From a virus, in the IMG/VR virus record IMGVR_UViG_3300047170_000049, positions 64,001-128,000 of that record: a stretch of 64,000 nucleotides of DNA; one strand, 5' to 3'. Under the pieces are notes generated by a model. The model was given only the letters and a program-made list of their open reading frames with translations. It searched no databases and was not told the origin of the DNA. Both the position numbers and the translations under genes were made by a program. This document shows positions 804-26,315 of this stretch, in pieces (position 1 is the first letter of the stretch; each line of letters opens with the position of its first letter).

Positions 804-831
804 ATTAAGATTTTGGGTTAACCCTTTGATA
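804..831 (-). promoter_or_regulatory. putative late promoter (IHF-like site, N6, AATCTTAAT)
   Basis: Minus strand TATCAAAGGGTTA-ACCCAA-AATCTTAAT; one of 7 copies upstream of structural genes. Confidence 0.75.
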
Positions 832-862
832 TTCTTAGCTTTTTTATTTATTATTATTTGGC

Positions 863-889
863 TTAAGTTTTTAAAATATAAGCCGAATA
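863..889 (+). promoter_or_regulatory. sigma28/FliA-type promoter
   Basis: TTAAGTTT-N11-GCCGAATA versus consensus TAAAGTTT-N11-GCCGATAA. Confidence 0.65.
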
Positions 890-910
890 GTCATATAGAC
901 GGAGGGTTAT

Positions 911-1177
911 ATGAACAACCAAATAAAAGTGGCATTTGATGTTCGGGCTCTGACAAGTGAAAAAGGTCTTAGGACGTTCAAGACGTTCGCAGATTTAGGC
1001 GTACATATATTTATCACGGCACCCAATCGCGAAAGCGAAGAGATTGCCTTACAGTTGGTAGATTTATTAAAAATAAAGGCAGCGGTTGTGACAAAAGGCA
1101 CGTTGCTAACTGCAGATTTATCCATAGATTACGATTATTTAGAAAATGCTAAAACTAATATAGTGTTTAAGGATTAA
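911..1177 (+). CDS. degenerate minimal HAD-fold protein (paralog of 11567..11851)
   Basis: KVAFDVRAL...AAVVTKG...DLSID aligns with KVAFDIDDT...ATVLRKG...DIAVD; GGAGG RBS. Confidence 0.6.
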   Translation: MNNQIKVAFDVRALTSEKGLRTFKTFADLGVHIFITAPNRESEEIALQLVDLLKIKAAVVTKGTLLTADLSIDYDYLENAKTNIVFKD

Positions 1178-1186
1178 GGAGGGTAT

Positions 1187-1447
1187 ATGGAATTGAATGG
1201 TTTAGCTAACATAAGAATGGTATTGGACGCCGCCAAGGATAATAACGAGGTGACGGAAGAAATCTATAAAACCCTGACTGAACAGGCTGTTTTAATGGAG
1301 CGGTACATGATTGCCCTAAAGCATATCCCAGACATTGCTTGGCATGAAGTTAGGGCTAACCCTGAACTTTTTCCCACCCGTAGGGAAATGCTTAATTTGG
1401 AAGGTGAGCCTTACGCTGCATTCTTTGCGCGACGCAATTCCTTGTAA
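1187..1447 (+). CDS. hypothetical protein
   Basis: AAGGAGG RBS; in operon with 911..1177. Confidence 0.7.
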   Translation: MELNGLANIRMVLDAAKDNNEVTEEIYKTLTEQAVLMERYMIALKHIPDIAWHEVRANPELFPTRREMLNLEGEPYAAFFARRNSL

Positions 1448-1499
1448 GAAGATTTGGCTTAGTTTGATGGACTCATTCCAAGCCAAATCTGAGGTGGGA

Positions 1500-1883
1500 T
1501 TAGAAGGTCTCGCCGTACAAGAACCAAAATAGGCCAATAACACAACCCATTGCGACTACCGCAAAATACACCCATAATATGCGTGGGTCTACGCCATGGC
1601 GCTTACTGCTTAATTCAACATAAGGAATTGTGCCAGTGTGGTGTAATTGGAATTGGTCTGGGTTAATACCTGAATACTCAACAAACCAACCCCAGTGGTA
1701 TGACTTCCAAAGCTCTGGACGGTAAATGTAAACACCATCAGGCTGGCAGTTGAAGGTCGCTTGTCTCATTAGGCCGATGACGTACTGAGGATAGTGCTCA
1801 AAATAAATCTGGGCTAATTCAATACTTCTTTGCTGTTCGGACTGAGGCAGGTCTTGAAACTGCTTCTTCTGATGCTGAGTCAT
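1500..1883 (-). CDS. hypothetical protein with C-terminal transmembrane helix
   Basis: GGAG RBS; hydrophobic ILWVYFAVVAMGCVIGLFWFLY. Confidence 0.65.
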   Translation of the reverse strand: MTQHQKKQFQDLPQSEQQRSIELAQIYFEHYPQYVIGLMRQATFNCQPDGVYIYRPELWKSYHWGWFVEYSGINPDQFQLHHTGTIPYVELSSKRHGVDPRILWVYFAVVAMGCVIGLFWFLYGETF

Positions 1884-1887
1884 AGTA

Positions 1888-1930
1888 TTCTCCGTGTTGT
1901 TGTTGGTTATAAAATCACAACACGGGGATA
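1888..1930 (-). promoter_or_regulatory. stem-loop covering the RBS of 1500..1883
   Basis: Inverted repeat CCGTGTTGT/ACAACACGG overlapping GGAGA. Confidence 0.5.
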
Positions 1931-1954
1931 AAACGCAGTCAAGGCCAATTTTTA

Positions 1955-2818
1955 TTATCTTGGTCCTACGTTGCCGCCAGTAGGGGCATTGATTTCGGCG
2001 TCGGGTACGTCTTTCTCCGTGCGATTACCTAGGAAAATGTAATCGGCTTGAACTTGAGCTTGCATTGGCATTTTCTGCATTGAGTAATCGCCAGTGTAAG
2101 CGTTCATCTGTGGGAAGATACGGATTTCGTGCATCATCTGCTTGACGTAAAAATAAGGCTTATATTTGTAACGAACAGAAATTAGTTTGGGTTGGTCACT
2201 TGTGTTATTCCAACCAGGTTGTTTACCACCAGGAATCCACGCAATGTGTCCTTGAGCGTCGATATTGAAATCTTGGCCTTCGGTATAGAACTTACCATCG
2301 GAGTCGGTGACATATTCAATTTCTGAAATTTGGAATTGAGTGCGGTCAATGCCAGTCATCGAGTGGGTGACTTTTTCAAAGTTAGAATGGAAGAATTCTG
2401 CGGGGCATTCGCAAGGAATTAACTTATCGTATTCAGTAAACGATGCAAGTTTGGTCGTGCCCTTGTAGTAGCGATTAAATGTGAGCATCGCACTAGAGCT
2501 ACCGTAGAAACCTGCAGGGATGTATGCTAGTTGTTTAGAGTTGTTTGTAAACACTCCCCAAACTTGTCCAGCGCACATATAAACAAATCCATTTTCACAG
2601 TGAGCGGTGGCGTTGCCATCGAAATCGTGATTATGGGAATGACGAATGTCACCATCAGTAACTTGGCCTAAGACGCAAGGGATTGCCTTGTAGTGCCAGA
2701 ATAATACACCATTTTGAATTAAGAAATTATCTTGACCAATGGAATCGACGGTGACCGCGTTCCAAGGTTCTTCATAATTAATTAATACAGCATTTACCGC
2801 TGGTTTTACATCGGCCAT
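1955..2818 (-). CDS. putative neck / head-closure protein
   Basis: Cys/His N-terminal part (PC...C..G) and SVRYKYKPYFYVKQMMHEIR resemble neck proteins of SPO1/Twort-type myoviruses; late-region context. Confidence 0.5.
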   Translation of the reverse strand: MADVKPAVNAVLINYEEPWNAVTVDSIGQDNFLIQNGVLFWHYKAIPCVLGQVTDGDIRHSHNHDFDGNATAHCENGFVYMCAGQVWGVFTNNSKQLAYIPAGFYGSSSAMLTFNRYYKGTTKLASFTEYDKLIPCECPAEFFHSNFEKVTHSMTGIDRTQFQISEIEYVTDSDGKFYTEGQDFNIDAQGHIAWIPGGKQPGWNNTSDQPKLISVRYKYKPYFYVKQMMHEIRIFPQMNAYTGDYSMQKMPMQAQVQADYIFLGNRTEKDVPDAEINAPTGGNVGPR

Positions 2819-2821
2819 TTA

Positions 2822-3466
2822 TTACTCCCAGAAATTTCCAGGCAAGTGCCCTTTGGGTACGTTTTTATTTTTCATACGGTAATCATCTTCCAATTTTGAA
2901 CCATGGAAAGGCTGAGGTTCATTGAAGTAGACTTTACCATCGGGGCCTTGTTCTTTGTTGTACATATGTTGAGCACCAAAGGCTTCATGGGCTTGTTGTG
3001 GATTCATGCCTGCCATTTGATAGTGCTTAATTGCTTCGTTCTTATGATACTCACCAGCCAAGTGATTATTAATATCTTTACCTTGGTCGTAGTTATCTTT
3101 ATGGAAGTTTGAAAAGTGAGCGTGCCAATTAGCAATTTTCTTATGGTTCTCAGGAGTGGAGGCGTGTGGCATGGAGCGAAGCTCTGCATCGTGCTGTATG
3201 GACGAGACGTTGCCCCATTGTGGGTTGAATTGCCTATCGGTAGACTTGTAAAGATTCTCGTGCCAGCTAATACCGTTTTGAACCTTATCCGCCATACCCT
3301 TGGCAACGGCACGGTGAGCGGCTTGTCCTAGGACTCTTAGTTCGCCTGAAGCTTTCTTCAAGGCCATAATGTTTAATCCACCCTTGGTACGGATGTGATA
3401 AATAGGGTCGGTCTTGTAAACGCCGACTTGTTCCATAGTGTGAATGTCTTGTTTGTTTAAATTCAT
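2822..3466 (-). CDS. hypothetical head-associated protein, two domains separated by LYKS; His-rich C-terminal part
   Basis: Late promoter directly upstream; LxKS motif. Confidence 0.55.
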   Translation of the reverse strand: MNLNKQDIHTMEQVGVYKTDPIYHIRTKGGLNIMALKKASGELRVLGQAAHRAVAKGMADKVQNGISWHENLYKSTDRQFNPQWGNVSSIQHDAELRSMPHASTPENHKKIANWHAHFSNFHKDNYDQGKDINNHLAGEYHKNEAIKHYQMAGMNPQQAHEAFGAQHMYNKEQGPDGKVYFNEPQPFHGSKLEDDYRMKNKNVPKGHLPGNFWE

Positions 3467-3487
3467 ATTTTCCCCTAAAGGACTATA

Positions 3488-3515
3488 ATTAAGATTTTAG
3501 GTTAACCCTTTGATT
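3488..3515 (-). promoter_or_regulatory. putative late promoter
   Basis: AATCAAAGGGTTA-ACCTAA-AATCTTAAT; overlaps the 3' end of the upstream CDS. Confidence 0.75.
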
Positions 3516-5646
3516 TTATTGCATCTTTGACGGCTGGAATACCCCATACCCAAATAGAATTAATCAATGAATCAGGGTATTTAGACTGTTTTACCAATTC
3601 TTTGATTTCTTCTAGACGGTATAGTTCAGGGCTTGGGTCTAACTTATATTTAAACATAAGTTCTTTGATGAGGTTTGGGTCTAGACGTAGAATCCAGTCG
3701 CGAAGTTCTTCTGCGACCTTGGGATTTCTAATACGAGGTAGGCCCTGGAACTTAGTTTCATTATTAGAGTTTTGCTTAACGTCATTTTCTACGCGCAAGA
3801 TGTATGGGATGAAGATGTCCGTGTCTTTAGAAGGGTCGAAGGCAAGATTGGCAAAAGAAGACCCGTGGTCAATCATTTGCAAGCCCTTGCCGTTTGTCAT
3901 GACATTACCGCCATGAGAATCAGCTTCGCCTAGGATGTAGAACATGGTGGCTATTTTATGGACAACACCTTCACGGGTGAGTTCGCCAATGAGTGCCTTG
4001 AATTCATGTTCGTCATCTTTTTCAAGGTCTTGCGCTATCTTGTAATCGTCGGGTAGCATTTTGATTGCTACGGCATAGTGAGGCTTACCATCTTTTTGGA
4101 TTTCACCCATAACTGAATGTGGAATGTAATCAACCAAACCAAACACACTATGGGCTAGTTTATAGAAACAGGCTTCTTTAATGAATTGAGGGCCAGTATC
4201 TTTTAAAGACTTAACACCAGGCTTATTCTTAGGTTCGAGTTTTAAGAGCCATGAGTCTTTAGGTTCGTCGCCGACGATAAAGGAATCTGTGGTGAAATGG
4301 CCATAGTGACTTAGGTCATGAATCTTCTCGTCACGGATTAGCGAATTGATATTTTGTGTTGCTACTATGGAGTAATCATCTTGAGTCAGTGGCTTAAAGA
4401 ATTTAATGCCAGCAAACTTTTGTTCAATCTTTTCTAGAAGACCTTCTTCTTTAAGGAAGGAGTCCAGGCTCGAACCTAGATGTTTATTTTCGTTCTTTGT
4501 CATCTTAGGTTTAGCATCGGCAACTTCACCGTAATTATGTATGTTGCCTTTTGCATCACGTTGTGGTTTAGTCTGAAACTTCAGATTTTTAGAGTTGATA
4601 TTGAAACTTGCAGTGGGATGGCCAACAACAATTTCATTTTCATGCGAATGGGGATGTTCTTGGCCTTGGACGGTCATGTGATGACCAGAGTGAAGGACTT
4701 GTTTCAGTGGCACCCATTTGGACATTACCACCCCATGATTATCTGGTTGACCTTCAATATGCCCACGATTATATGCGAACCTCGCTGCCATTTCTGGGTC
4801 CGTTGTCCACGACGTTAAGTGTGCTGTGGGTAATTTTATTTTTTTATCGTCAACCTCGTTAGTTTCGGGGTTATGACCTACTGCATCTTTAATTGCTTTG
4901 CCATAATGCCCACCGACCCCACGATAAAGTTTGACATGAGGCTCACCATGAAAATAACGTTTAGGTGTGAATTTATCTTGCATTATTTCAGCTTGAACTT
5001 TTTTAGCGTACTCATCTAGGTGAGGAAGAACATCAGAGGCTTGCATGAATTTATTGGGGTACTCAAATTTAGTATTTTTTAAATGTTCTAAGGTTTCTTT
5101 GTCATGACCCATCAATCCATCAGGGTTGAGATAAGCTTCGTGACTATTGGCAGATTCGCCACGGTGGTCCGTTACCGTTTCAGGTTGACCCGTGAAATGA
5201 GACTTAATGGTCGCGAAATGACCAGGGCTAACCGCTCTTTCGTAGCTGGACCAAAAATTCCCAACCTTCTTCATGTTTGCCAAGGCTTCATCGGGCGCAA
5301 ATTTGGGATGGGTTTGTATTGCGTTGGTGACGTACTGGTCTTCACGACCTTCGTGACCCACACGCCTTAGTGTGGCAGCATCAGCATGCTTAGGGATGTG
5401 TCCAGCGTATTCAAATAGAAACGAATTGAGATTATCTTTTTGATTAGGACGAGTCTTAAGATGGTCTAGGACTTTGTGAACTGCAGCATTAGGCATACCT
5501 TCGCCGCCGTCATTGGGATTATTGGCCGAAGGAAGGCGCTGCCAAATGTCGTAGTTAGCTGGCACACGTTTAGCATGCTCAATGGCTTTATCCCAGTCAC
5601 CACGATGGATGGCTTCAAAAGTTGCTTTCTCATTTGAGTCAGACAT
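3502..5646 (-). CDS. multidomain effector: ADP-ribosyltransferase (R-S-E) plus PI3K/HipA-like kinase
   Basis: ART motifs KLYRGV, LTSWTTDPEMAARFA, HENEIVV; kinase motifs WLLK, KEACFYKLA, DSHGGN, MIDHG. Confidence 0.7.
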   Translation of the reverse strand: MSDSNEKATFEAIHRGDWDKAIEHAKRVPANYDIWQRLPSANNPNDGGEGMPNAAVHKVLDHLKTRPNQKDNLNSFLFEYAGHIPKHADAATLRRVGHEGREDQYVTNAIQTHPKFAPDEALANMKKVGNFWSSYERAVSPGHFATIKSHFTGQPETVTDHRGESANSHEAYLNPDGLMGHDKETLEHLKNTKFEYPNKFMQASDVLPHLDEYAKKVQAEIMQDKFTPKRYFHGEPHVKLYRGVGGHYGKAIKDAVGHNPETNEVDDKKIKLPTAHLTSWTTDPEMAARFAYNRGHIEGQPDNHGVVMSKWVPLKQVLHSGHHMTVQGQEHPHSHENEIVVGHPTASFNINSKNLKFQTKPQRDAKGNIHNYGEVADAKPKMTKNENKHLGSSLDSFLKEEGLLEKIEQKFAGIKFFKPLTQDDYSIVATQNINSLIRDEKIHDLSHYGHFTTDSFIVGDEPKDSWLLKLEPKNKPGVKSLKDTGPQFIKEACFYKLAHSVFGLVDYIPHSVMGEIQKDGKPHYAVAIKMLPDDYKIAQDLEKDDEHEFKALIGELTREGVVHKIATMFYILGEADSHGGNVMTNGKGLQMIDHGSSFANLAFDPSKDTDIFIPYILRVENDVKQNSNNETKFQGLPRIRNPKVAEELRDWILRLDPNLIKELMFKYKLDPSPELYRLEEIKELVKQSKYPDSLINSIWVWGIPAVKDAIKSKG

Positions 5647-7724
5647 TATTTATCCCAGTTGTGCGTCGCGTTCATCATAACGTGCTTATCGTCAATAAGT
5701 ACGTCTTGTGCAGGTTTAACATCATGCTTCTCGTTTTTAACTGAAGCAGGTGAACGTTCGGCGTTCATTGCAAAGTTGCCTAATTTCTTAAATTTGTTAA
5801 ATTTTACCACATAAGGATGGTTCTTGATTTCATCGGGGGTAGCATCAAGTGCGTGGGTAATCCCATTGTACCAAGCGTAAGCCGCTTTATCATGGTCGTT
5901 ACCAAAGCGGTTTAAAAGCCTATGCCAATGGGCATGGACTAATTGCTCTTCCATTTTCTTATTTCCTAAAACCAACTTGGAAATTTTCTCTTGGTCCATC
6001 TTAGGGTCCATTGAGCCAAGTTCAGGATAGAGCTTTTTAATGTGGGGATTCTTCTGGGCAGTCTCAACAATAGTAATAGGCATAAGGCCGTAAGAGCCTA
6101 TGGCTTTCGTGCCAGTGTTGATGCCGTGTACAACTTCAGCGTGCTTTAAATTTTTACCGTTAGAAGATTCAATATTCTTGATGGCATCTAAATCGCCCTT
6201 GGCAGTGTCAACTACTTGGATACCAGGCTGACTCTTATCTTGGCTACTTAAAGCCGTAGGAGCGCCGAGCATTGACATTGCCGTGATAACGTTCATAGCT
6301 TTTGTCTTCATGTTCTTATCCAACCCTTCTGATAAAAGTGTATCATAAGGCTGGCTTAAAGTCTCTATTTTGCTTATTTCCGTATTTTTCCTAACGTTTT
6401 CAATGGCTTTGAGCTTATCTTTTTTAGTAAGCTCCGCTTTCTTAGTGTCTTCAGTGGCTAAAGCCCAGTCAGGAAGCAAACCAGCTTTCTGGTCAGCGTA
6501 AATTGTTTGCGCGGGGTTAGCTCTATTGTGCGCTGCGTGCTTACCAAAGTTAACCCATGAGTTCTGGCCGCGTGTTTCTGAGGTCAGGGCCTTTTGTGCT
6601 TGAGGTGAATACATCTGCTTATGGCTAAGGTATGCGTTCTCTTCGCCTTTGGGACCAAATCCATAACCTTCTTTAGCGTGGCCAAAATAATCGTGGACTA
6701 TACGGAAGAGGTCGTTAGCGGGTAAGTCTTCGCCATTATGAATAACGCCTGAAGGTTTGAGCATTGGGTGATTGGAGTATAGTGAATCTCCAGAACCAAA
6801 ACCTTGTTCGGTAGGGTAGTACCACATATGATTGTTTTGGCGAACGTCTTGGAGCATATCTTTAGATGATTTATAGGGATTAGCCATGTCTGGTCTAATC
6901 TTACTGATTTTTAAACCAGCATTTTTAATGTGATGAAATTGTTCTGCCGTTTCATTGATTAGTGCATTGTAGGCACGTTTAGTTTCAGGATGGTCAGGGG
7001 TGTGGGGCATGGCTTCGTAGGCCGCTGCAATGTTCTTAGCACGAGGCACGTTGACTTCTGCTTGGGTGTCTGGATGATTTAAAGTCAAACCTTTCGACTT
7101 GGCGTAATTGTTAGCGACGCTTCTAATTTTAATATCGGGTTGAGTTGGGGTAGGTGGCTTGAACGCATCTGCCTTGCGAAGGTTACGGTACTCAATCTCG
7201 CCCTTGGCCATCTTATAGCCATTGGCATTAGGCTGCTTGTCAGACCAAAGGACTTTATCTTCTTTCCAAAGCTCTAATGGCTTAACCTTGACGTTTAATT
7301 TGTGTTGGGGCATTCCCGCTTGGACTTTATCCCAAAGGTCCTTATCCACCGTTATATGAGGCTGGAACGTGGGAAATTTATCTGGGCCATAATGGTCTTG
7401 AAGCTTCTTGTTGGCTTCTTCCATATGTTTGATACCAGGGCCTACGAGCTTAAGGACGTGCCATGTCTTACCTTCTGGGGTATTAAACTTATGGGGCACT
7501 AGCTGGAATTGGTCAGGAGGGGTTGTATTGAGTTGATTTAGGTGGTGTTCCATTTGCTTCACGTCGGGCTCATGGGCTCCTAAGTTTCTTAGGGTGACGT
7601 GGTACTTACCGCCATTTTCTGGATTGATAGCTTGGCCGTTGATATGAACGGGCCACATCAAATAGTGCTCTTTCCACGCTGGGTCTTGCGCTTTTACATT
7701 TGAAACACTAGTCTTCGTGGGCAT
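5646..7724 (-). CDS. multidomain effector: 2H phosphoesterase, HDYFGH domain, lysozyme-like lytic transglycosylase
   Basis: HVTL and HITV (2H); NDLFRIVHDYFGH...GEENA...ETRGQNSWVN; IESSNG...AIGSYGLMP...AAYAWYNG (SLT). Confidence 0.7.
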   Translation of the reverse strand: MPTKTSVSNVKAQDPAWKEHYLMWPVHINGQAINPENGGKYHVTLRNLGAHEPDVKQMEHHLNQLNTTPPDQFQLVPHKFNTPEGKTWHVLKLVGPGIKHMEEANKKLQDHYGPDKFPTFQPHITVDKDLWDKVQAGMPQHKLNVKVKPLELWKEDKVLWSDKQPNANGYKMAKGEIEYRNLRKADAFKPPTPTQPDIKIRSVANNYAKSKGLTLNHPDTQAEVNVPRAKNIAAAYEAMPHTPDHPETKRAYNALINETAEQFHHIKNAGLKISKIRPDMANPYKSSKDMLQDVRQNNHMWYYPTEQGFGSGDSLYSNHPMLKPSGVIHNGEDLPANDLFRIVHDYFGHAKEGYGFGPKGEENAYLSHKQMYSPQAQKALTSETRGQNSWVNFGKHAAHNRANPAQTIYADQKAGLLPDWALATEDTKKAELTKKDKLKAIENVRKNTEISKIETLSQPYDTLLSEGLDKNMKTKAMNVITAMSMLGAPTALSSQDKSQPGIQVVDTAKGDLDAIKNIESSNGKNLKHAEVVHGINTGTKAIGSYGLMPITIVETAQKNPHIKKLYPELGSMDPKMDQEKISKLVLGNKKMEEQLVHAHWHRLLNRFGNDHDKAAYAWYNGITHALDATPDEIKNHPYVVKFNKFKKLGNFAMNAERSPASVKNEKHDVKPAQDVLIDDKHVMMNATHNWDK

Positions 7725-7759
7725 TTCTTAATTCCTTAATCTTCTTATGTACTTAAGCT

Positions 7760-7787
7760 ATTAAGATTCTTATATAACCTATCGGAA
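7760..7787 (-). promoter_or_regulatory. putative late promoter
   Basis: TTCCGATAGGTTA-TATAAG-AATCTTAAT; degenerate IHF half. Confidence 0.65.
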
Positions 7788-7827
7788 GCATTCAGGAATA
7801 CTTAAGGGATTTATTGTGATTATTTCC

Positions 7828-7854
7828 TAAAGTTTTAACAAAAATTGCCGAATA
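7828..7854 (+). promoter_or_regulatory. sigma28/FliA-type promoter
   Basis: TAAAGTTT-N11-GCCGAATA. Confidence 0.7.
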
Positions 7855-7875
7855 GTAATATGAAAGGTGGTTGTT

Positions 7876-8082
7876 ATGAAAGCAACGTATGTGGTTAAAT
7901 ATACGAAAATTTTCATGAAAGACGCACAACGCTTAAATGAACAATTATGTCAGGTTCAATTCGAGGATAAAGAGAAGGCCAAGGATTTTAAAGAAGAGCT
8001 AGGCATTGAGGCAGGTAAGACCTACCCCACAGGCTTTGGTTGTTTTTATTATGTAGATGAAGCTGAAATTTTAGTTTTGTGA
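7876..8082 (+). CDS. hypothetical protein
   Basis: AAGGTGG RBS before ATG 7876; downstream of FliA-type promoter. Confidence 0.65.
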   Translation: MKATYVVKYTKIFMKDAQRLNEQLCQVQFEDKEKAKDFKEELGIEAGKTYPTGFGCFYYVDEAEILVL

Positions 8083-8088
8083 GGTCGT

Positions 8089-8697
8089 ATGGCTAAGGTG
8101 GTTAATTTATATAGTTCTTTTGGTTTTTGGACTGAAAACTCTGCGCGATTCCCAAATTTACTTCATAGGTTGGGAATTGAAGTAAACCCAGGACGTTCGT
8201 TAACTTTCAACAAAACATTAGAAGAAATGGAAGCGATTGCAAATGAGCTTGGCTTTACCCCACTTCCAATAGTTCAAGTGGCCTATGGTGATAAAATGCC
8301 ACAAGAAGAGATGGGTAAAATTATTATGGAAGGCAAGTGTGCAGTTGATTTAATCTACTCACACGATTGGGTTAGCCATCTGTTTGCATACTTATTGATG
8401 ACGCCTAAACTTAAACATAACTTACAAGACTTGGTGGTAAATCTACCTCCAGATGGGAAATCTTCCGAATTAACAAAGCAAACCTCTGTTTTTGATGTGC
8501 TTACCGCATTATCAATAACGGAATTATCTACCCAAAAAAATGATGAGGATTTTGCAAAATTTGTTAAATATGCTTTAGAGGCATACGGGGGTGCAAAAGT
8601 TCACATTGAGAATGTGGGTGGATTCGTACACAATTTCAAAGAAGCTAGGGAGAAGGTTTACGAGGTGGAGAATTTTCTAGCGCAGAAAGCCGCTTAG
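8089..8697 (+). CDS. hypothetical protein
   Basis: GAGG RBS; 202 aa. Confidence 0.7.
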   Translation: MAKVVNLYSSFGFWTENSARFPNLLHRLGIEVNPGRSLTFNKTLEEMEAIANELGFTPLPIVQVAYGDKMPQEEMGKIIMEGKCAVDLIYSHDWVSHLFAYLLMTPKLKHNLQDLVVNLPPDGKSSELTKQTSVFDVLTALSITELSTQKNDEDFAKFVKYALEAYGGAKVHIENVGGFVHNFKEAREKVYEVENFLAQKAA

Positions 8698-9744: not shown

Positions 9745-9745
9745 C

Positions 9746-10162: not shown

Positions 10163-10474
10163 TTAAAGCTTGAAGACCATTTTAATTGCACCAGCAATAA
10201 TACCGCTGAGAATGGTCCATAGAATTTTGTTTTGTAGCTTTGTATCTTTTTGAAGGGCAGATAGTTGTTCTTTTTGGTGTTCTTGATTGTTTTCAAAGAG
10301 TATGACTTTTTCAGCCAACATCTTTTGGGTGCTAATGATTTGCTTTAACAGTTCGTCACGCTCTTCACCCGCTTGTTTGATGTAATCAAGCTCAGTGCGT
10401 AATTTAATTAAATCTGTGCGAACCGATATTTCTTTGTTCAAGTTAGACCTGCCGTTACTGGACATTCTTATCAA
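10163..10474 (-). CDS. coiled-coil protein with C-terminal TM helix (XhlA/holin-like); start may be ATG 10465
   Basis: Coiled coil then ILWTILSGIIAGAIKMVF; late promoter upstream. Confidence 0.5.
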   Translation of the reverse strand: MIRMSSNGRSNLNKEISVRTDLIKLRTELDYIKQAGEERDELLKQIISTQKMLAEKVILFENNQEHQKEQLSALQKDTKLQNKILWTILSGIIAGAIKMVFKL

Positions 10475-10505: not shown

Positions 10506-10533
10506 ATTAAGATTTGGAGCTAAGATATTGGAA
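10506..10533 (-). promoter_or_regulatory. putative late promoter
   Basis: TTCCAATATCTTA-GCTCCA-AATCTTAAT. Confidence 0.7.
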
Positions 10534-10574
10534 TGATTGGGGTTTGGCGGGTCGAAACTAATACGGAGATTTTC

Positions 10575-17053: not shown

Positions 17054-17142
17054 AATCTCTTACCTCTTAAACTTTAATACCACATTATTTCCAAAAGTAT
17101 GGTATATTTTTATTAAGGCACCAGGTTATATCGAAAGCTGAG

Positions 17143-17615: not shown

Positions 17616-17644
17616 AAACCCCTGATATTTCTACCAGGGGTTTT
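17615..17644. terminator. bidirectional intrinsic terminator
   Basis: AAAACCCCTG-loop-CAGGGGTTTT between convergent genes, ending the capsid operon. Confidence 0.85.
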
Positions 17645-17668
17645 CGGAAACTATCTTAACTACTTAGA

Positions 17669-17983: not shown

Positions 17984-17995
17984 CGTCGCCTCCGA

Positions 17996-19378
17996 TTAAC
18001 TGTTACGGAGGTTGTCGATAAGGATATTGAAGCGAGGAAGTTTAACAACTGTAGCGCAGAATCTAAAGCTAACTTTAGGAATGCTGAGGTCAGTCATAGC
18101 AAGTTGCATTGACTTGTAAGGGCTGAGTTCAGCAATTTCAAGACCGCGCATATCTAACATAAACCCAGTAACGAAACCAGGGGTTTTGTTATTGAGGTCG
18201 ATGAAAGCAGTGGTAGCTCCACCAGAGTTAACTACTCGACCAATCCAACGTAAGCTGCTTCCACCTGCATCTGAACGATACATATTGAAGTGCTTGGCGA
18301 AAACGCCTGAAGCTGGGGTGATGGTAGCAGTTACGCTATTGCCAGAAGCACCAATTGTGATGGGGCTAATAGCAGTTGCAGGGGATTCACCAATTTCGTT
18401 AACTGCAGTACAAAAGTATTGATAAACTTCGTTTGCGTTGAAAGAGGTTGTTCCTGCAGCTTGTGCAAGAGCGATGGTAGGGCTGTTAGGAGCACCGATA
18501 CGGGGACGGGCTACTGCAGTTTTACCAGAGAGGAAACGGCTTGATTCGATGCTAACAACTGAATCAGCTACTGCTTGCTCTTTCAAGCTTGCACCAGTTG
18601 ATTGTTGAGGGCTTCCTGCGAGAACGATACGTTCTTTGGGGAAAGCAATCTTGTTATAAGCGCCGTGTGTCAAGGGGTCAATGTACAATTTCTCAGGAGA
18701 ACCGTGGTTCATAGCAGCTTGTGCATATGAATCTTCGATGATTCCTTGAGAAAGGATACCGTTCTGGTTGAATACGATTGATTTGTTTGAACCGTACTCA
18801 TTGAACATTAAGTCTTGTGTTGAAGACAAATAATCTGATTGACGAATTTGGGGGTCAAGACCTTGCATTCCAGGGGTTGTTGACATTGCGAGGGGGTTAC
18901 CGTCGAAAACGCCAGCATTGCTGAAAGCTTCTTTACCACGGAATACTTCAAATTCGATGTCGCCAGCGATTTTCAATGCACTGTCTGCTTCAGCGCGGTC
19001 TTCGGATTTAACTCCGTCGAAAGCTTGAATCATTGTGGATTGAACAGTCACTCTACGAACTTCAGCGTAGTATGCCATGGGCACCACTGAACGAACATAG
19101 CTTGAGGTTTGTTCTTGTCCGACAGAGCCTTCAAGCACTGCAGAACCACCGAACACACCGTAATCAAGTTGACGGTTGAATTGTACTAAGGTCCCCTTAG
19201 CTGGGTTCACCTTAAGAAGCTTTTGCAACTTAATGTGTTTATCTTCGTAGGTAGCAACGTTCATTACAGGAGAAAGGTCTTCCATCTGTAATGCGCTACC
19301 TTGGTTTAGAGCACTGGGGGATACGTTATATCCACCTGCTTCTAAAGCTTTTTTAAGGGCTTCTAATTGTTCAATCAC
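17996..19378 (-). CDS. major capsid protein (SPO1/Twort/A511 type, with Ig/FN3-like insertion)
   Basis: LKKALEAGGY...GSALQMEDL N-terminus; YQYFCTAVNEIGES insertion; position after scaffold and protease; GTG start with AAGGAG. Confidence 0.88.
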   Translation of the reverse strand: MIEQLEALKKALEAGGYNVSPSALNQGSALQMEDLSPVMNVATYEDKHIKLQKLLKVNPAKGTLVQFNRQLDYGVFGGSAVLEGSVGQEQTSSYVRSVVPMAYYAEVRRVTVQSTMIQAFDGVKSEDRAEADSALKIAGDIEFEVFRGKEAFSNAGVFDGNPLAMSTTPGMQGLDPQIRQSDYLSSTQDLMFNEYGSNKSIVFNQNGILSQGIIEDSYAQAAMNHGSPEKLYIDPLTHGAYNKIAFPKERIVLAGSPQQSTGASLKEQAVADSVVSIESSRFLSGKTAVARPRIGAPNSPTIALAQAAGTTSFNANEVYQYFCTAVNEIGESPATAISPITIGASGNSVTATITPASGVFAKHFNMYRSDAGGSSLRWIGRVVNSGGATTAFIDLNNKTPGFVTGFMLDMRGLEIAELSPYKSMQLAMTDLSIPKVSFRFCATVVKLPRFNILIDNLRNS

Positions 19379-19380
19379 GG

Positions 19381-20226
19381 TTATGACTCCTTCTCAATAA
19401 GTTTTAAGATAGTTTCTTTACCCTTTTTATGAAGGTAAAAATCTACGATACTGTCTCGTTCGTTCTTAGTTAATGTGGGCTTACGGCTAATGGAAGTTAA
19501 CTTAGCGTGAATTTCCTTATCCGTTAGAGGCTTCTTGTCTTCAGATTTTTGAAGACTGCCTTCGCCTGGTTTAGCAACATGATTAATGTCAGTCACAGCT
19601 TTGCGAACTGGCTTGTTAATCATCTTCTCGAAAAGCTCTGTAACTTTTTCGAGACCAGCTTGAAGCTTCTTGGTTTCAGTCTCAGACTTAGCAAGCTTCT
19701 GTTCTAATTCTTCAACCTTAGCGTTATCCTTTTCAGACATTTGCAAAGGTGCAGATGCTGAGGGGGATGGTGCAGGGGCTGCAGGACTAGCTGAACCCAT
19801 ATCTGCAGGAGCGGCTTCTGGAGATGGAGATGAGCGTTTAGCCATTTCCATTTTGCATTTTTCCATAAGGTCCTGGAGTTTTTCGGGGTCAAGGTCAGCT
19901 AAGAGTTCTTCTAAGCTGCCAAAGTCTTGGTCTTGTTGACTGTCACTTGCTTCAGGTGAAGCAGGTGGAGTTGCGCTTGAATCAGAAGCTTCAGGAGAAG
20001 GTGCAGGGGCAGAAGCACTTGCATCGTCTTTCTTCATTGACTCTTCTTTTTCTTTTGAAGATTCTTCTTTGGATTTTTCTTTGGAAGATTCTTCTTTCTT
20101 AGCGAGTTCGGCAGCTTCAGCTTTTTTAAGCTCTTCTGCCTTATCCGTTTCTTTCTTGATTAACACGTCAAGTTCGCCAATGGCTTCCTTAACGAGTTTC
20201 TCAAGGTCAATTTTTGGTGTATCCAT
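19381..20226 (-). CDS. capsid scaffolding / prohead core protein
   Basis: Acidic, low-complexity coiled coil immediately upstream of the capsid gene; many LxKS/A motifs. Confidence 0.7.
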   Translation of the reverse strand: MDTPKIDLEKLVKEAIGELDVLIKKETDKAEELKKAEAAELAKKEESSKEKSKEESSKEKEESMKKDDASASAPAPSPEASDSSATPPASPEASDSQQDQDFGSLEELLADLDPEKLQDLMEKCKMEMAKRSSPSPEAAPADMGSASPAAPAPSPSASAPLQMSEKDNAKVEELEQKLAKSETETKKLQAGLEKVTELFEKMINKPVRKAVTDINHVAKPGEGSLQKSEDKKPLTDKEIHAKLTSISRKPTLTKNERDSIVDFYLHKKGKETILKLIEKES

Positions 20227-20271
20227 TTTCTCTTCCTCTTATTAGTTAAAGTAAAACTAACTGCTTCCCTA

Positions 20272-20727
20272 TTATTGACCAGAACCTGGCCATTTGTAGT
20301 CGCCGACTTTGGCAACAAGGTTAGCGGGGAGGATTTCAGCGGTTGATGGAACTGAACCATTCGCGCCGAGATAACGTTCTTGATACACGCCTAATTGAGC
20401 AAGGTCCCAGTCGATTAAAGATTTAACTGAGCTAGCAACAATGGAATGTCCAGAGTCAGTGTCAGATTCTTCAACGATTTGGAGTTTGCTTGGGCTGTAG
20501 ACTTGTTGAGGGCTGCCGATACTGTCCAAAAATGGAGTGTCGAAAGGAACAATGCGAATTAGCATGTTGTTCTGACCTGCAGTAGGGGTGGCACTTTGTG
20601 ACACAGACAAGATAGCACCAGAAGCATCAGTCGATTGACTGAATGTATAGCTGGGAAGACGTAATGAAAGTCTTTCTTGGAGGTCACGAGCGAGGGCTTG
20701 TTGTTTTGCAATTTGTAAAAGGGACAT
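20272..20727 (-). CDS. hypothetical head protein
   Basis: Own late promoter; AAGGAG RBS; first gene of the capsid operon. Confidence 0.6.
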   Translation of the reverse strand: MSLLQIAKQQALARDLQERLSLRLPSYTFSQSTDASGAILSVSQSATPTAGQNNMLIRIVPFDTPFLDSIGSPQQVYSPSKLQIVEESDTDSGHSIVASSVKSLIDWDLAQLGVYQERYLGANGSVPSTAEILPANLVAKVGDYKWPGSGQ

Positions 20728-20777
20728 CTTTTATTCTCCTTATTTAAAAATAACTAGTTACTAGAGATATTACCTTT

Positions 20778-20805
20778 ATTAAGATATTTCCCTAAGTTCT
20801 TAAAA
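20778..20805 (-). promoter_or_regulatory. putative late promoter (capsid operon)
   Basis: TTTTAAGAACTTA-GGGAAA-TATCTTAAT. Confidence 0.65.
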
Positions 20806-20808
20806 TGA

Positions 20809-21768
20809 TTAATGTTTTTTAGAATTATTCAATTTCGCGTAAATTTCCATAGCTTCTGCCTCGTTAGCGGCATAGAGCTTGTTGGCTAGCACAGCTTCCA
20901 CTTTTTCTAAGTTCTCCTCAGATAGGGTAGGAAGATGTTTTCGCATTTCAGTACGGGTTAGCTTCTTTTTCTTGAAAATTTTCACTAACTTAGCTAACTC
21001 AGTATCGAGTCCTTCCTTTTGCAAGGCAGGCCCACTTGAGAGGGCTGAGGGAGTGGCACCCATTCCACCAGCGGAGATTGCCTTTTTAAGTCCGCTGAGG
21101 GCATTGGATAGCTGTGCATATTGGTCAGGTCGTACTGAGTCCTGAATTATATACACTTCATTGTAAGCCGATTTGTGCAAGGATTCGTGGCCACCATTGG
21201 CAGTCGAGTAATCCATAGACTTGCGGACTCCTTGGTGGGATTCCTGCACAAATTCAACTTTGGCGGCTCTATTACAAGGCTTGTGCGTTAGCGCAAGTCT
21301 ACGAATAGCCGTTTCTTTTAAAAGATTTCCTTCACGTTTAACTGTAGAACCTTCAACGCTAAAGCCAAGTTGTTGTTCAACCCCAGCCGATTCAAAGTTG
21401 CGTATAATAGATGCGGCAGCTTTGGCGTTTGGATGATTCTCGTCATCAAAGATTTCTACTTGGCCCCAAATGAGTGGGACCTTGAGTTTCTTAAATGCTT
21501 GTAATTCTTGCTTATTTGAGCAATCTTTTTCGCTAAAGATTTTCTTAGCGTTCATGACCCTACCGACGATAGACTGAAAGCCTTCAAAGCCTTTGTTTTT
21601 CTCATCTTTTAGGTCTTCTGGGTTGATATGCTCCGTATTAACTAGAGCCTTTCCTGAACGTAGCTCTTCTATGTCAGCACCCTTAACATCTAGGACTTCG
21701 CCTGAAGTATCGGGGGTTTGCGCTGAAAAGACACCAGCCAGTATTAGATTTTTCTTAAGGTCACTCAT
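20809..21768 (-). CDS. prohead (capsid maturation) protease
   Basis: DTSGE, VNTEH, LGFSVEG, LALTHKPCN motifs of HK97-type prohead proteases. Confidence 0.85.
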   Translation of the reverse strand: MSDLKKNLILAGVFSAQTPDTSGEVLDVKGADIEELRSGKALVNTEHINPEDLKDEKNKGFEGFQSIVGRVMNAKKIFSEKDCSNKQELQAFKKLKVPLIWGQVEIFDDENHPNAKAAASIIRNFESAGVEQQLGFSVEGSTVKREGNLLKETAIRRLALTHKPCNRAAKVEFVQESHQGVRKSMDYSTANGGHESLHKSAYNEVYIIQDSVRPDQYAQLSNALSGLKKAISAGGMGATPSALSSGPALQKEGLDTELAKLVKIFKKKKLTRTEMRKHLPTLSEENLEKVEAVLANKLYAANEAEAMEIYAKLNNSKKH

Positions 21769-21777
21769 ACTAACAAA

Positions 21778-21805
21778 ATTAAGATTTTAAGCTAAATACT
21801 TGATT
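21778..21805 (-). promoter_or_regulatory. putative late promoter (near-leaderless transcript)
   Basis: AATCAAGTATTTA-GCTTAA-AATCTTAAT, 9 nt before the ATG. Confidence 0.75.
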
Positions 21806-21834
21806 TAATTAAAGTTAAATGCCTTAAATTCTTA

Positions 21835-21862
21835 TTGACACTAATACGGGATGTGGTAATAT
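21835..21862 (+). promoter_or_regulatory. sigma70-type promoter
   Basis: TTGACA-N16-TAATAT with TGTG extension. Confidence 0.6.
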
Positions 21863-21895
21863 TAATGAATAGCGACTTAAACAAAGGGGATTAAA

Positions 21896-22153
21896 GTGTA
21901 TCTTACAAGAATTTTAGACTTAGGTGTTTGGAAGACCGTAGCGACCGTTATCAACCCAATTGGTCAATTTCGTAGCGCCTTAACCTTAGAACAAAAGCGC
22001 CGCGTGGTATCCATTGGCAAGAATATTGATATTGATAAGAAAATTGAAGCCGCTCAATTATGGGCTATCGCCCGTGAATCAACTGACCAAGAACTGCGTA
22101 AAATGCAAGCCGCAATCAAAGTAGTAGTAGAGCATAAAAACAAGGATTTATAA
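21896..22153 (+). CDS. hypothetical protein
   Basis: GGGGA RBS; GTG start; promoter upstream. Confidence 0.65.
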   Translation: MYLTRILDLGVWKTVATVINPIGQFRSALTLEQKRRVVSIGKNIDIDKKIEAAQLWAIARESTDQELRKMQAAIKVVVEHKNKDL

Positions 22154-22440
22154 TGGGTTCTTCTAAATTAGGCATGGCTAGATTTTGGCCTTCCGTAAAA
22201 AATGAAGAACCTAAAGCACCTCAAGTTGTCATACCTAAAATAATTCACATAACGGATTATGAATATTACGACTCACATGAGGTAATTCTAGCGGTTACAT
22301 TTAAGGACCAAACGATACACCATTGCGAACCGCAACAACAGCATAAGTGTCACGAATTGATGGCACAATGGGCAAAGTCAATTATAGGTCCTAGTGAATC
22401 TGAAGAGATGAAATTGCACGACTTACTTTTTTGTAAGTGA
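22153..22440 (+). CDS. small protein with C-terminal KLHDLLF motif
   Basis: TAATG overlap; shared C-terminal motif. Confidence 0.6.
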   Translation: MGSSKLGMARFWPSVKNEEPKAPQVVIPKIIHITDYEYYDSHEVILAVTFKDQTIHHCEPQQQHKCHELMAQWAKSIIGPSESEEMKLHDLLFCK

Positions 22441-23253
22441 CTTTTCTTGTTTCTTTTGATGGTCGTATTCATTGTGGTCTTGACCCACATATTCTAAGCG
22501 ACCTGCTTTATTGAATCCAAACCCAGGACCGACGAACACTAGGACGTGACGGCAGTTAGGATGAGTCGTGGATATACTTGCTTTACGGTCTTTCCAATCA
22601 CCTGAATCACTAGCGAGTTCAGACATTTTATAGACCTTTGGGGTAACCATATCAGGTTGAACCCATAAACGAATACAGTCTTTACAAATCTTATCATCGT
22701 TAACGCCAATTTTGCAAACCAATGGGTCTTCAATACCAAGCTGTTCAGAGCTTTTAAGAATGGCATCGGCCACACCATGGTTTTGAGCATTGTGAAGTTC
22801 GACGTTGGCAATAAGCTCCACACCCTTATCGAGCTTCTTACGTTGCTCTTCTAAAGACTCACGAATTTTGGAGAAGATTTCTTTGCCTTCATCTGTACGA
22901 AGAAAATCGCCAATCTTCTCACTCTTAAGTTTATTTTTGTTTTTAACCGTAGCTAGACCTTCTTCGATGGTTCGCATCATATCGGCAGTGGTCTTTTGCT
23001 TTAGGGAGTCGATGTAGTCTGAGGCGGTATTTTGCAAGCGTTCCATGTTCACTTTATCGCTGGAATCTTGCATACCGTTTAATAGGTTGGCGTGTAAGTA
23101 AGCCTGGAGCAATGACTTTTTAGGGTCGTAGTTCTTTAAGGCAAAGGAATAGTAATTCTTTAAGGCGCTAGGGCCTAAGAACGTACCTTTGAGGTTATCA
23201 AAGGACCTTGAGATGATTGATTGAATTACTTCGCGTGCTTTTTTGCTTAACAT
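22423..23253 (-). CDS. MuF-like head morphogenesis protein
   Basis: DDKICKDC...THPNCRH; immediately downstream of the portal gene. Confidence 0.7.
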   Translation of the reverse strand: MLSKKAREVIQSIISRSFDNLKGTFLGPSALKNYYSFALKNYDPKKSLLQAYLHANLLNGMQDSSDKVNMERLQNTASDYIDSLKQKTTADMMRTIEEGLATVKNKNKLKSEKIGDFLRTDEGKEIFSKIRESLEEQRKKLDKGVELIANVELHNAQNHGVADAILKSSEQLGIEDPLVCKIGVNDDKICKDCIRLWVQPDMVTPKVYKMSELASDSGDWKDRKASISTTHPNCRHVLVFVGPGFGFNKAGRLEYVGQDHNEYDHQKKQEKSLTKK

Positions 23254-25274
23254 TATTCGTGCCCATGACCGTCATCTTTGTCACCTAGGGCGTTCATAAT
23301 TTGGTTGAGCATGTCTTGTGACTGAGCCTGCCAACTTTCAGTAACCTTGTCTTTGATTTGCTTATGCAATTTGAGTAACTCTCTACGATTTTTGGGTAAG
23401 CTCTTTTCAGCTTTGGTTAAGCCTTCAGACTTATTCAAAAGTTCTTGGAGTTGAGCCACTACGGAGTCAAGGTCTTGAGGTTGTTGTGGAGCGCCGCCAC
23501 CTGGTTGTCCTGGTTGACCAGGTTGGGGTGGAGGGTTAAGCATTTGCTTAACTTCTAAGTACATCTCGTCGCCAAGGTAGTAGTCGAATTCAGGATGTTG
23601 GGTCTTGTCGCCATAACCTTTATATTGCTCACCGCCAAAGGATTCGAGGATTTGTCCCTTCGTGTAGTATTTTTCAAGGATTGCAAGCCATGCAGCGTTC
23701 ATTGGGAATTCGCCTGCAAGTGGGACCTTCTGTTTTTCTACGCGGTCCATGATGTCGTTCATGTTCATGTAGATTGCAGAGTCTTGCTCTAAGCGGGTAG
23801 CTTCTTTTTCTGGTGTATCTGCATCAAGACCTTCGAGGTCGATGTAGAAAAGTTTAGCCCATTCAGGATTAATCTTGGGTAAAAGTCTTTCGTTAATGAA
23901 ATCTTCTACGCTAAGTAGTAATGGACGAAGACCAATGTCACGAGCGGCGATTAACTTCCATTCGTTATTAGCTTCTGCCATTGACTGAGAGTTCGTACCG
24001 CGTGATAGGTATGATAGAGCGGCTACTTCATCAGGTGACATTTGGAAAGCGGCGAAAATCATACGTTTAGTCAAGTCTGATAAGTATTGGAATTCCATGT
24101 CGCGGCCAGCGGCATCTAATGCAACGGTATCAACTTCGTCTTTAGTACCGATACCAAATACTGGCATACGCCAAGCAGCATTAGAAGAGTTGATATGCGC
24201 GTTCATCTGAGCACGAATCATTTCAACGTCTTCTTTGTCCAAGTTCTCAGATTTGAAAACCAGGATGTTACGAGATGCGCGACCGTTAATGAAGTACATC
24301 TTGTTATGAGTTGTAATATTGATGTGGGTTGTGATAGCATTAATAATACGGTCAAAGATGGTTACAGGATAACCTGAACGTAGAATGTCAGTTGAAGGGC
24401 TAAGGGTCCAGACTAGTAGTTCATCATCTGTAAAGAACTGTCTTGGACGTTCTTGGATAACTTGTACCCATGTGTAATCATCTTCAATGAAGCGTTCTGG
24501 GTCAACTTCGATTTTACCTTGTCCGTCAATACCATCGCGAATGCGTTGAAGTTCTACGATAGCTTGTTCACGGATAGATTGAGCGGCATCAGCTTTAGGT
24601 GCTGCGAAGTAAATAGTACCAGCATCGACGGCGCGAAAGTATTGAAACTCTTCTGAGCTTTCAGTCTTAATGATTTCAGTTGCGAACCACCCGAACGTCA
24701 AAGCATCTTCTATGATTTCTGAGAAGTATTGGGATAGGGTACGTTTTTCTTTATCTTTAAGCCCTTCGTTAGAACCACAATTGAGCATAAGTTCTTTAAT
24801 CTTAGGGACTTCTGTCTCTTTAAGCTCTTTGATTTTTTCATCACTCAAACCTTCTAAAATTTGAGGCTTGATGTTAACGGTAAAACCAACATCGAAACGG
24901 TTAGCACGAGGTCTAGCGAATGATGCAATTTGACGAGCACGAACGGGTAGGATGACGCCGCCGATAAGTTCTTCTGTATCGCGGATGCGCTTGAGCATGA
25001 TGTTTGGAATGAGCGAAGTTTTTTGTTTATAGAGACCTTCGTAATTGGAATAACCAAGCTGAGGGTCTACGTCATAAGATAGGCGAAGACTCTTCTTGAT
25101 TTTCTCATCAGAGCTTTTCTTAAGTTCGCTAAGGATTTGTGCAATTGGGTCAGCCGAATTGGTATTAGGGTCAACTTCAATTGTGGTAAATCGCTTATCG
25201 CTAGTAGGAAGCTGCTCTGCGTTTCTAGGTAACTCAGCGCCGCCTACTAATCTTTGTGTTTTATCATCGCTCAT
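23253..25274 (-). CDS. portal protein
   Basis: FRAVDAGTI, HNKMYFING, DMEFQ...IFAAFQMSPDEV, GLRPLL..VEDFINERL motifs; head-module position. Confidence 0.85.
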   Translation of the reverse strand: MSDDKTQRLVGGAELPRNAEQLPTSDKRFTTIEVDPNTNSADPIAQILSELKKSSDEKIKKSLRLSYDVDPQLGYSNYEGLYKQKTSLIPNIMLKRIRDTEELIGGVILPVRARQIASFARPRANRFDVGFTVNIKPQILEGLSDEKIKELKETEVPKIKELMLNCGSNEGLKDKEKRTLSQYFSEIIEDALTFGWFATEIIKTESSEEFQYFRAVDAGTIYFAAPKADAAQSIREQAIVELQRIRDGIDGQGKIEVDPERFIEDDYTWVQVIQERPRQFFTDDELLVWTLSPSTDILRSGYPVTIFDRIINAITTHINITTHNKMYFINGRASRNILVFKSENLDKEDVEMIRAQMNAHINSSNAAWRMPVFGIGTKDEVDTVALDAAGRDMEFQYLSDLTKRMIFAAFQMSPDEVAALSYLSRGTNSQSMAEANNEWKLIAARDIGLRPLLLSVEDFINERLLPKINPEWAKLFYIDLEGLDADTPEKEATRLEQDSAIYMNMNDIMDRVEKQKVPLAGEFPMNAAWLAILEKYYTKGQILESFGGEQYKGYGDKTQHPEFDYYLGDEMYLEVKQMLNPPPQPGQPGQPGGGAPQQPQDLDSVVAQLQELLNKSEGLTKAEKSLPKNRRELLKLHKQIKDKVTESWQAQSQDMLNQIMNALGDKDDGHGHE

Positions 25275-25277
25275 AAA

Positions 25278-26252
25278 TTACTCTGCCGTCGCAATCGTTA
25301 CAACCAAAGTCTCAAGACTGAGGTTAGTTACACTTAAAGCGTAGGTCGTTCCATTCTTAAGATAGAGTCCTGGGGTTTCAGGACTATCGACTGTTGTGGG
25401 CTCAACTAACGTGTTATTTGAAACATCAGCATTAGCTTGAACACTGCAACGTTGTTGTGCAGCAATCATGACCCACTTTTTAGCGTTTGAATAAATTACG
25501 AATCCAGCGGCTCCAGGCATGATGCCTGATTCAATTGGAAGTCCATTTGGATTAGCTGCCGTGATTTCAATGTAATTAGGCGTTACGTTTGTAAGAACGT
25601 AGGTGCCTTGGGTGTATTGACTAAATCCAGCGGAGATTAGAAGCTTATCGCCAATTTGTGCTTGATTATTTGAAGCACCATTACTGAAGAGTAATAACAG
25701 TGTAGGGTCTAGAACCACTACAGTTTCTGCCACTGCATCAAGATTTTGAATAGAAAATGATGTTGCGTTCTTACCAATAACAGTGAACACACCTTGGTTA
25801 ACTGGGTTAAAGCCAGAACCTGCACTAATGCTAACTTGGTCACCAATTTGAAGTGTGCTGAAGTCAGGCGCTGTACCCGTTCCAGTATATGTGTAAAGGG
25901 CAATGCCACCATTTACCGTAACGGCGAATTGGGTGGTATTATCAATGCCTGTCACGCGGCTAGTTCTAAAAGCTGGGGCTGTTCCACCAGTCCAAGTAAA
26001 TCTAAAGGTGTTAAGAGCAATAGAAGGTTGGCTTACGGTAAATGCCGTAGTGCTATCAATCGCGGTATTTCTCGTACCGTTGAAGATTGATTGGGTAAAC
26101 CCTGGAGCAATTGCAAACTCTTCCGACTTAGGTCTGGTTACCGTCATGCCTAGCAAATTGTAAGAAAGGTCAGCATTTCGGATACTTGGGTTGTTATTTT
26201 GTAGCATGTCAGAGAAAGCTAAAAAGCCTAATCGTAAATTTAAAGTGCTCAA
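25278..26252 (-). CDS. beta-rich virion structural protein
   Basis: Late promoter; TTG start with AAGGAG; Thr/Gly/Ser-rich with internal repeat. Confidence 0.6.
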   Translation of the reverse strand: MSTLNLRLGFLAFSDMLQNNNPSIRNADLSYNLLGMTVTRPKSEEFAIAPGFTQSIFNGTRNTAIDSTTAFTVSQPSIALNTFRFTWTGGTAPAFRTSRVTGIDNTTQFAVTVNGGIALYTYTGTGTAPDFSTLQIGDQVSISAGSGFNPVNQGVFTVIGKNATSFSIQNLDAVAETVVVLDPTLLLLFSNGASNNQAQIGDKLLISAGFSQYTQGTYVLTNVTPNYIEITAANPNGLPIESGIMPGAAGFVIYSNAKKWVMIAAQQRCSVQANADVSNNTLVEPTTVDSPETPGLYLKNGTTYALSVTNLSLETLVVTIATAE

Positions 26253-26287
26253 GAAAGTGCTCCTTGGATAATACCGTTTTTTAATAC

Positions 26288-26315
26288 ATTAAGATTTTCA
26301 TATAACTCATTGATT
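26288..26315 (-). promoter_or_regulatory. putative late promoter
   Basis: AATCAATGAGTTA-TATGAA-AATCTTAAT. Confidence 0.75.

Follow-up and report, generated by a model that had tools for sequence, protein, structure and literature searches.

The question raised by this locus is what recognises the upstream half of a two-part motif that stands before the late genes of an uncultured phage. The phage is represented by a 159,288-bp record (IMG/VR record IMGVR_UViG_3300047170_000049, labelled G000), of which bases 64001–128000 make up the 64-kb window, i.e. the whole stretch analysed here. A preliminary description of the window had listed seven copies of the motif, each with an upstream hexamer, TTA, and a core, and had proposed that the core is the −10 element for a phage sigma factor and that the hexamer belongs to a site for integration host factor (IHF). 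All seven copies (804, 3488, 7760, 10506, 20778, 21778, and 26288) were found again, all on the minus strand and all with a 6-nt spacer between TTA and core. The hexamer is WATCAA in four (804, 3488, 21778, and 26288) and degenerate in the other three (TTCCGA at 7760, TTCCAA at 10506, and TTTTAA at 20778). The pattern TTA-N6-WATCTTAAT matches these 7 sites in the window against 0.08 expected, and 0 of 100 shuffles reached 7. Across the whole genome there are 17 copies, none of them on the plus strand, against 0 matches for the reversed control pattern in the same 159 kb. The nine-base core WATCTTAAT alone occurs 12 times in the window (2.3 expected), the five further copies (15516, 33371, 58801, 60591, and 62368) lying inside open reading frames (ORFs) and lacking the upstream half. 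A 42-nt weight matrix run over the whole genome recovered the same 17 sites at 33.5–45.2 bits and nothing else above 14 bits, and because of this gap the 17 copies are treated as a discrete set. From each copy, it is 11–64 nt to the start of a long ORF on the minus strand; in the window, these lead into the prohead protease gene, the major head protein operon, a pre-portal gene, and genes for large late proteins without known function.

The sigma factor in question is encoded on the minus strand at 30783–31772 (329 aa) and comprises regions 2, 3, and 4.1 and the first helix of region 4.2. It matches phrog_351, RNA polymerase sigma factor (E 2.2e-15), and Pfam Sigma70_r3 (27.2 bits, cut-off 25.3), and a phmmer search of the PDB aligned residues 119–323 with residues 134–340 of SigA (7l7b_F, E 1.5e-07). 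The best fold matches of its structural model (mean predicted local distance difference test score 72) are all primary sigmas, and each of the top 50 Foldseek matches is a sigma chain or a sigma-containing RNA polymerase complex. The protein is thus a primary-type sigma factor that includes region 2; the Pfam model for sigma region 2 found no match, either in this ORF or elsewhere in the genome. It aligns to residues 356–562 of the 613 residues of Escherichia coli RpoD and then stops, its C terminus lying six residues past the first helix of region 4.2. All 17 aligned homologues, down to 25% identity, share this end point, which makes the truncation a trait of the family rather than an assembly error. 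The −35-reading helix-turn-helix of region 4.2 is absent from the ORF, and therefore this sigma factor cannot read a −35 box; Pfam r4 and r4_2 had no significant match anywhere in the genome. The N-terminal domain of 115 residues is conserved among the homologues, with no role assigned to it. A 93-aa ORF on the minus strand (30511–30792), which overlaps the stop of the sigma gene, is not region 4 and has no protein family match. No multisubunit phage RNA polymerase was found in the genome, and no T7-type phage RNA polymerase either, in a search whose control also gave no signal. In the late region, matches to sigma-70-type promoters are no more numerous than chance would give (39 vs 42.7 expected).

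The sigma factor marks a group of 150–177-kb phages related to Myxococcus phage Mx1 (74 IMG/VR loci, G+C 32–67%), from which 12 related records were assembled for comparison. Whole-genome k-mer ranking for a late box was swamped by coding repeats, and intergenic filtering worked. The over-represented intergenic signal in eight distant full genomes (sigma 25–30% identical) is the hexamer AATCTT, preceded by two to six conserved bases and usually followed by (T/A)A; positions more than ∼8 nt before it carry no information. Mx1 itself has the same box. AATCTT is the late box common to the whole sigma-bearing Mx1-like family, for whose late promoters no paper was found in the literature. With a sigma factor that lacks a −35 reader and a box shared across the family, the sites in G000 are very probably late promoters for the truncated phage sigma factor. 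That part of the preliminary description stands; the −10 register that it had drawn probably has to shift, as AATCTT is the hexamer shared by the family and the AAT behind it is a feature of the clade of G000.

The register of the hexamer can be read most easily from G019, a relative of 65% GC, in which GCAATCTT occurs 27 times on one strand vs 3 on the other. Start codons lie 6–10 nt after AATCTT in 13 of 26 cases, most often 6, which points to leaderless or near-leaderless transcripts with AATCTT at −12 to −7. This placement, with A at −11 and T at −7, is the most likely one, and the core variants of close relatives (AATCGTAAT, AAACCTAAT, and AAACTTAAT) keep an A, a C, and a T that fit −11, −9, and −7. 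Four genes of G000 begin 11–14 nt after the hexamer, in keeping with a transcription start ∼7 nt after AATCTT, 3 nt upstream of where it had been expected. Many late genes of G019 and Mx1 begin 6–10 nt after AATCTT and have no ribosome-binding site, and the late mRNAs of these high-GC relatives are probably leaderless. The AAACCTAAT variant stands before the prohead protease gene in the Logan contig L172 (20495) and in the relative G003 (coordinate 4810), with the upstream half kept in both.

The preliminary description had expected a late-transcription architecture unlike that of T4, and here the comparison came out otherwise. T4 late transcription employs gp55, gp33, and the gp45 clamp at promoters with TATAAATA at −10, and gp55 is a minimal region-2 protein. 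The underlying logic in the Mx1-like phages is T4-like, with a sigma factor devoid of its −35-reading part, a −10-only box in most of the family, and a small acidic sigma-4-like partner, which is discussed below. The differences are that the phage sigma factor is of the primary type with regions 2, 3, and 4.1, whereas gp55 is region 2 only, and that the clade of G000 adds a sequence-specific upstream element at fixed spacing. A promoter consisting of the −10 box alone, as in T4, was found in the eight distant relatives but not here, where a 27-nt conserved block lies upstream. Compared with the single-box (C)AATCTT promoters of other Mx1-like phages, which are served by the same sigma family and have the same hexamer, those of the clade carry this 27-nt block and a fixed AAT after the hexamer.

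The upstream block was characterised over the 17 sites, with position 0 set at the first A of AATCTTAAT. The stretch from −32 to −29 is A/T-rich (A or T in 16–17 of 17), −24 is always A, −23 is A or G, −22 is T in 15, and −20 is A in 16. Positions −19 to −14 read WWTCAA (T 14, C 14, A 15, and A 12 of 17) and are always followed by four free bases and then TTA at −9 to −7, each base of which is present in 17 of 17. TTA was part of the search pattern, yet every core copy with any upstream half has it. Four further free bases and an AA at −2/−1 lead into the core. The motif thus holds more conserved positions than had been listed for it (−32 to −29, −24 to −22, −20, and −2/−1). Strict WATCAA is found in 5 of the 17 sites genome-wide and 4 of the 7 in the window, and strict WATCAR in 7 of 17.

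The full two-part motif, with the same spacings, recurs in the relatives G001–G003 (sigma 39–47% identical) and in the Logan contigs L172–L174 (41–61%). In all, the upstream half could be traced to a subclade of eight phages with 32 sites, 17 in G000 and 15 in seven relatives. Among 50 IMG/VR relatives searched, 18 of which are at least 90% complete, a relaxed two-part pattern matched only G001–G003 and was absent from 47. Distant relatives show no enrichment of IHF-like boxes around their late boxes (6 vs ∼3 expected, at scattered positions); in G000, 9 of 17 sites have such a box at exactly −19. The upstream half is a real, clade-specific element in fixed register. Conservation in relatives, the lack of which the preliminary description had named as refuting its proposal, holds within the close clade of eight phages and not in the wider family, and since the element is kept in the one and absent from the other (47 of 50), it is an add-on to the promoter.

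Upstream halves without a core were also noted. There are four in G000 vs ∼0.7 in Markov simulations. The orphan halves at genome positions 128752 (minus strand, 21.2 bits, about 750 nt past the end of the window) and 154316 (plus strand, 16.2 bits) lie 40–60 bp upstream of sigma-28-like promoters (TAAA-N15-GCCGA...). Nine core-less matches of 15–23 bits (e.g. at 55548, 42229, and 22990) occur in G002, a 64-kb relative, a density higher than that of G000 in a comparison made without a genome-specific null model. The orphan halves carry little weight and may be chance, because A/T-rich relatives without the promoter half reach such scores about as often. Scans of sequence collections with the bipartite pattern returned mostly single chance matches and no clue to the host, and host assignment via a lipoprotein-like ORF gave scattered taxa and no clear answer.

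The described elements of an IHF site are WATCAA, a TTR 4 bp 3′ of it, two base steps, and, in some sites, an A tract with four to six A in the 5′ half; the two steps, at which prolines intercalate, are mostly AA and lie 9 bp apart (PMC1874591). The first three have counterparts in the upstream half, with an A/T-rich stretch in the place of the fourth. The majority base fits WATCAA at every position from −19 to −14, and WATCAR is matched at 6 of 6 positions in 7 of the 17 sites, at 5 of 6 in 5 more, and at 6 of 6 in 7 of the 15 sites of the relatives. TTR is represented by TTA in 17 of 17 sites here, and the 15 sites of the relatives include one TTG (L172). The AA of TCAA falls at −15/−14 (A in 15 and 12 of 17), and 9 bp upstream, −24/−23 holds AA in 13 sites and AG in the other 4; this second step accounts for the invariant A at −24, a base that had initially seemed out of place in an IHF site. 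Four or more A are found within −33 to −28 in 8 of 17 sites. The A/T-rich stretch at −32 to −29 lies where we take the A tract of the lambda H′ site (−33 to −28 in our own alignment) to fall. These elements hold across the 32 sites in eight phages. The candidate site spans approximately −37 to −3 in motif numbering and would be centred near −31 in the favoured promoter register.

By its sequence, then, the upstream half conforms to the definition of a canonical IHF site, and because four canonical elements are in register, the IHF reading is stronger at this level than the preliminary description knew; binding itself is predicted. We see about an even chance that the reader of the upstream half is IHF or a host relative of it. 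Several observations weigh against it. The A of TTR is almost invariant (31 of 32), and conservation extends to T at −22 and A at −20, none of which the IHF consensus requires. The second WATCAA position is A in just 10 of 17 sites, and a true A tract (at least 4 A in 6) is present in 8. The presence of IHF in the host is assumed, and no literature precedent was found for an activating IHF site centred near −31 that ends ∼3 bp before a −10 box. As most of the family lacks the element, a polymerase with such a sigma factor can work without it.

Conservation at positions that IHF does not call for (T at −22, A at −20, and the final A of TTR, where any R would do) would suit the main rival to IHF, a phage-encoded late activator in the style of T4 MotA at its −30 box or of Mu C at Mu late promoters, with the likeness to IHF convergent or coincidental. 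Restriction to one subclade is also what would be expected if a lineage-specific factor had co-evolved with its box, and the phage has many genes without known function. However, a BLAST presence/absence screen turned up no convincing clade-specific DNA-binding gene, mostly shadow ORFs, and no MotA-type domain is present in the phage. The specificity of such an activator would have to have persisted while the sigma factor drifted to 38% identity, and its existence would not account for the match to four independent IHF elements. We therefore consider this activator unlikely, if still the strongest competitor. A parallel is found in the T4 middle promoters, where remodelling of the host sigma-70 goes together with a phage activator that reads a MotA box centred at −30 (AsiA and MotA). 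They likewise combine a −10 element with a specific box that replaces the −35 box in fixed register; in G000, the MotA-type domain is missing and the box resembles a host IHF site. The best candidate from the screen, ORF 29169–29561 on the minus strand and the only basic ORF that seemed clade-specific, was rejected, having positional counterparts in distant relatives and no DNA-binding signature. It encodes a basic, fast-evolving protein of 130 aa between SbcD-like and small-terminase-like genes, with no family match and an Atlas model of low confidence whose weak KH/OsmC-like neighbours leave the fold uninformative.

A reader of the HU/IHF family would be the host's, since no gene of this family was found in G000 or in 18 relatives. 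ORF 28598–29188 was considered as a phage-encoded HU/IHF protein and set aside: its PF00216 signal is weak (E 0.03–0.11), and it is read as the small terminase subunit because it adjoins the large subunit and has a helix-turn-helix-like stretch. SPO1 TF1, a phage-encoded protein of the HU/IHF family that acts on early promoters of hydroxymethyluracil-containing DNA, similarly ties a DNA-bending protein of this family to phage promoter regions; it differs in being encoded by the phage.

The invariant spacing to the core, as for elements read by one complex, could instead mean that the holoenzyme itself reads the upstream half, through the N-terminal 115 residues of the sigma factor, a small sigma-4.2-like protein, or the alpha C-terminal domains. 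The sigma N-terminal domain is conserved and has no assigned role, and upstream DNA rich in A/T can function as an UP element. The conserved block, however, would be at approximately −36 to −19, downstream of the location of UP elements. The small protein would come from a plus-strand frame at 46539–46820 (conserved part 46629–46817) that is conserved in all 13 genomes. The frame has no ATG, GTG, or TTG start and follows in frame after the TGA of ORF 46122–46538; an ATT at 46635 is preceded by AAGGAG. Its synthesis would call for either an uncommon start codon or read-through of the stop. Its would-be recognition helix is acidic, has no arginines, and differs among clade members with a near-identical box, and because the helix is acidic and variable while the DNA box is kept, the mini protein is an unlikely box reader. 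A split sigma with the mini protein as reader was rejected on these grounds, the frame being family-wide as well. The sigma architecture and the mini protein are shared with distant relatives that lack the upstream element, and reading by the holoenzyme in any of these forms appears distinctly improbable.

It might also be asked whether a protein reader is needed at all. Intrinsically curved or deformable A/T-rich DNA could favour wrapping around the polymerase, and the likeness to IHF sites would then stem from shape. The A/T steps that make up the conserved bases follow a roughly helical spacing, and IHF itself recognises DNA shape by indirect readout (PMC1874591). Shape, however, rarely fixes single bases in 17 of 17 copies with free spacers between them, and 14 of the 17 sites keep the C of TCAA; we regard this account as very improbable.

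The best explanation as a whole, to which we give slightly less than an even chance, combines AATCTT read by the phage sigma factor with activation by a host IHF-type protein near −31. Host RNA polymerase carrying the phage sigma factor (30783–31772) would recognise AATCTT as a −10-type hexamer, and transcription would start ∼7 nt after it. In most relatives, the hexamer and a few flanking bases are the entire promoter. To this, the clade adds an IHF-type site in fixed register, composed of the A/T-rich tract, the AA kink step, WATCAR, and TTA, with its end 6 bp from the core. Near −31, the usual place of sigma region 4, the DNA would be bound by IHF of the host, or by another host protein of the IHF family, and bent into a U-turn, which may help the polymerase to bind or to open the promoter. 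More tentatively, with a chance clearly below even, host IHF could act as a stand-in for sigma region 4 and its −35 contact, the sigma factor and the acidic mini protein on the polymerase flap being recruited or activated by the U-turn near −31. At sigma-54 promoters, lambda pL, and Mu Pe, the IHF site is a good distance upstream, and the bound protein delivers activators or upstream DNA to the polymerase. Those systems and this one share a canonical IHF site in fixed orientation to the promoter; the predicted site here differs in lying near −31, where it fills the −35 region, and in being paired with a sigma factor lacking region 4.2. No paper was found that describes a promoter for such a sigma factor with an IHF site at its −35 position.

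The seven copies in the window, all on the minus strand, precede the following genes. The copy at 804–845 (40.8 bits; core 804–812, TTA 819–821, and TATCAA 826–831) stands before ORF 373–759. That at 3488–3529 (41.1 bits) precedes ORF 2822–3466, and its upstream half lies within the 3′ end of ORF 3502–5646, in agreement with the earlier remark that one copy is kept inside the coding end of a gene. The weakest copy, at 7760–7801 (33.5 bits; TTCCGA), precedes ORFs 5646–7724 and 3502–5646, and the copy at 10506–10547 (TTCCAA) precedes ORF 10163–10474. The copy at 20778–20819 (core TATCTTAAT; TTTTAA) is followed by ORFs 20272–20727 and 19381–20226 and by the major head protein gene at 17996–19378 (phrog_752, E 1.1e-40). 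The copy at 21778–21819 (AATCAA) precedes the prohead protease gene at 20809–21768, the ATG of which begins 12 nt after AATCTT. Finally, the copy at 26288–26329 (AATCAA) comes directly after the large terminase gene and precedes ORF 25278–26252 and the portal gene at 23253–25274; it has an orthologous copy in seven relatives. A GroEL-like chaperonin gene lies at 36464–38278.

The IHF-like add-on to the AATCTT promoter is a new part. To our knowledge, recruitment of polymerase by a sigma factor blind to the −35 region is known in detail only for T4, where it depends on the DNA clamp. The Mx1-like family offers a natural comparison, as most of its members have the bare AATCTT box and one subclade has an IHF-type site at a fixed distance from it. 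The part list is small (one sigma factor, one mini protein, and a 42-bp promoter), which makes the system testable in E. coli without culture of the phage. If IHF is the reader, a host architectural protein would be working from inside a core promoter, and late expression of the phage would be linked to the IHF level of its host. If IHF does stand in for region 4, the promoter would have an architecture so far undescribed for holoenzymes of the sigma-70 family, and it would have arisen in a family whose other members manage with a −10 box alone.

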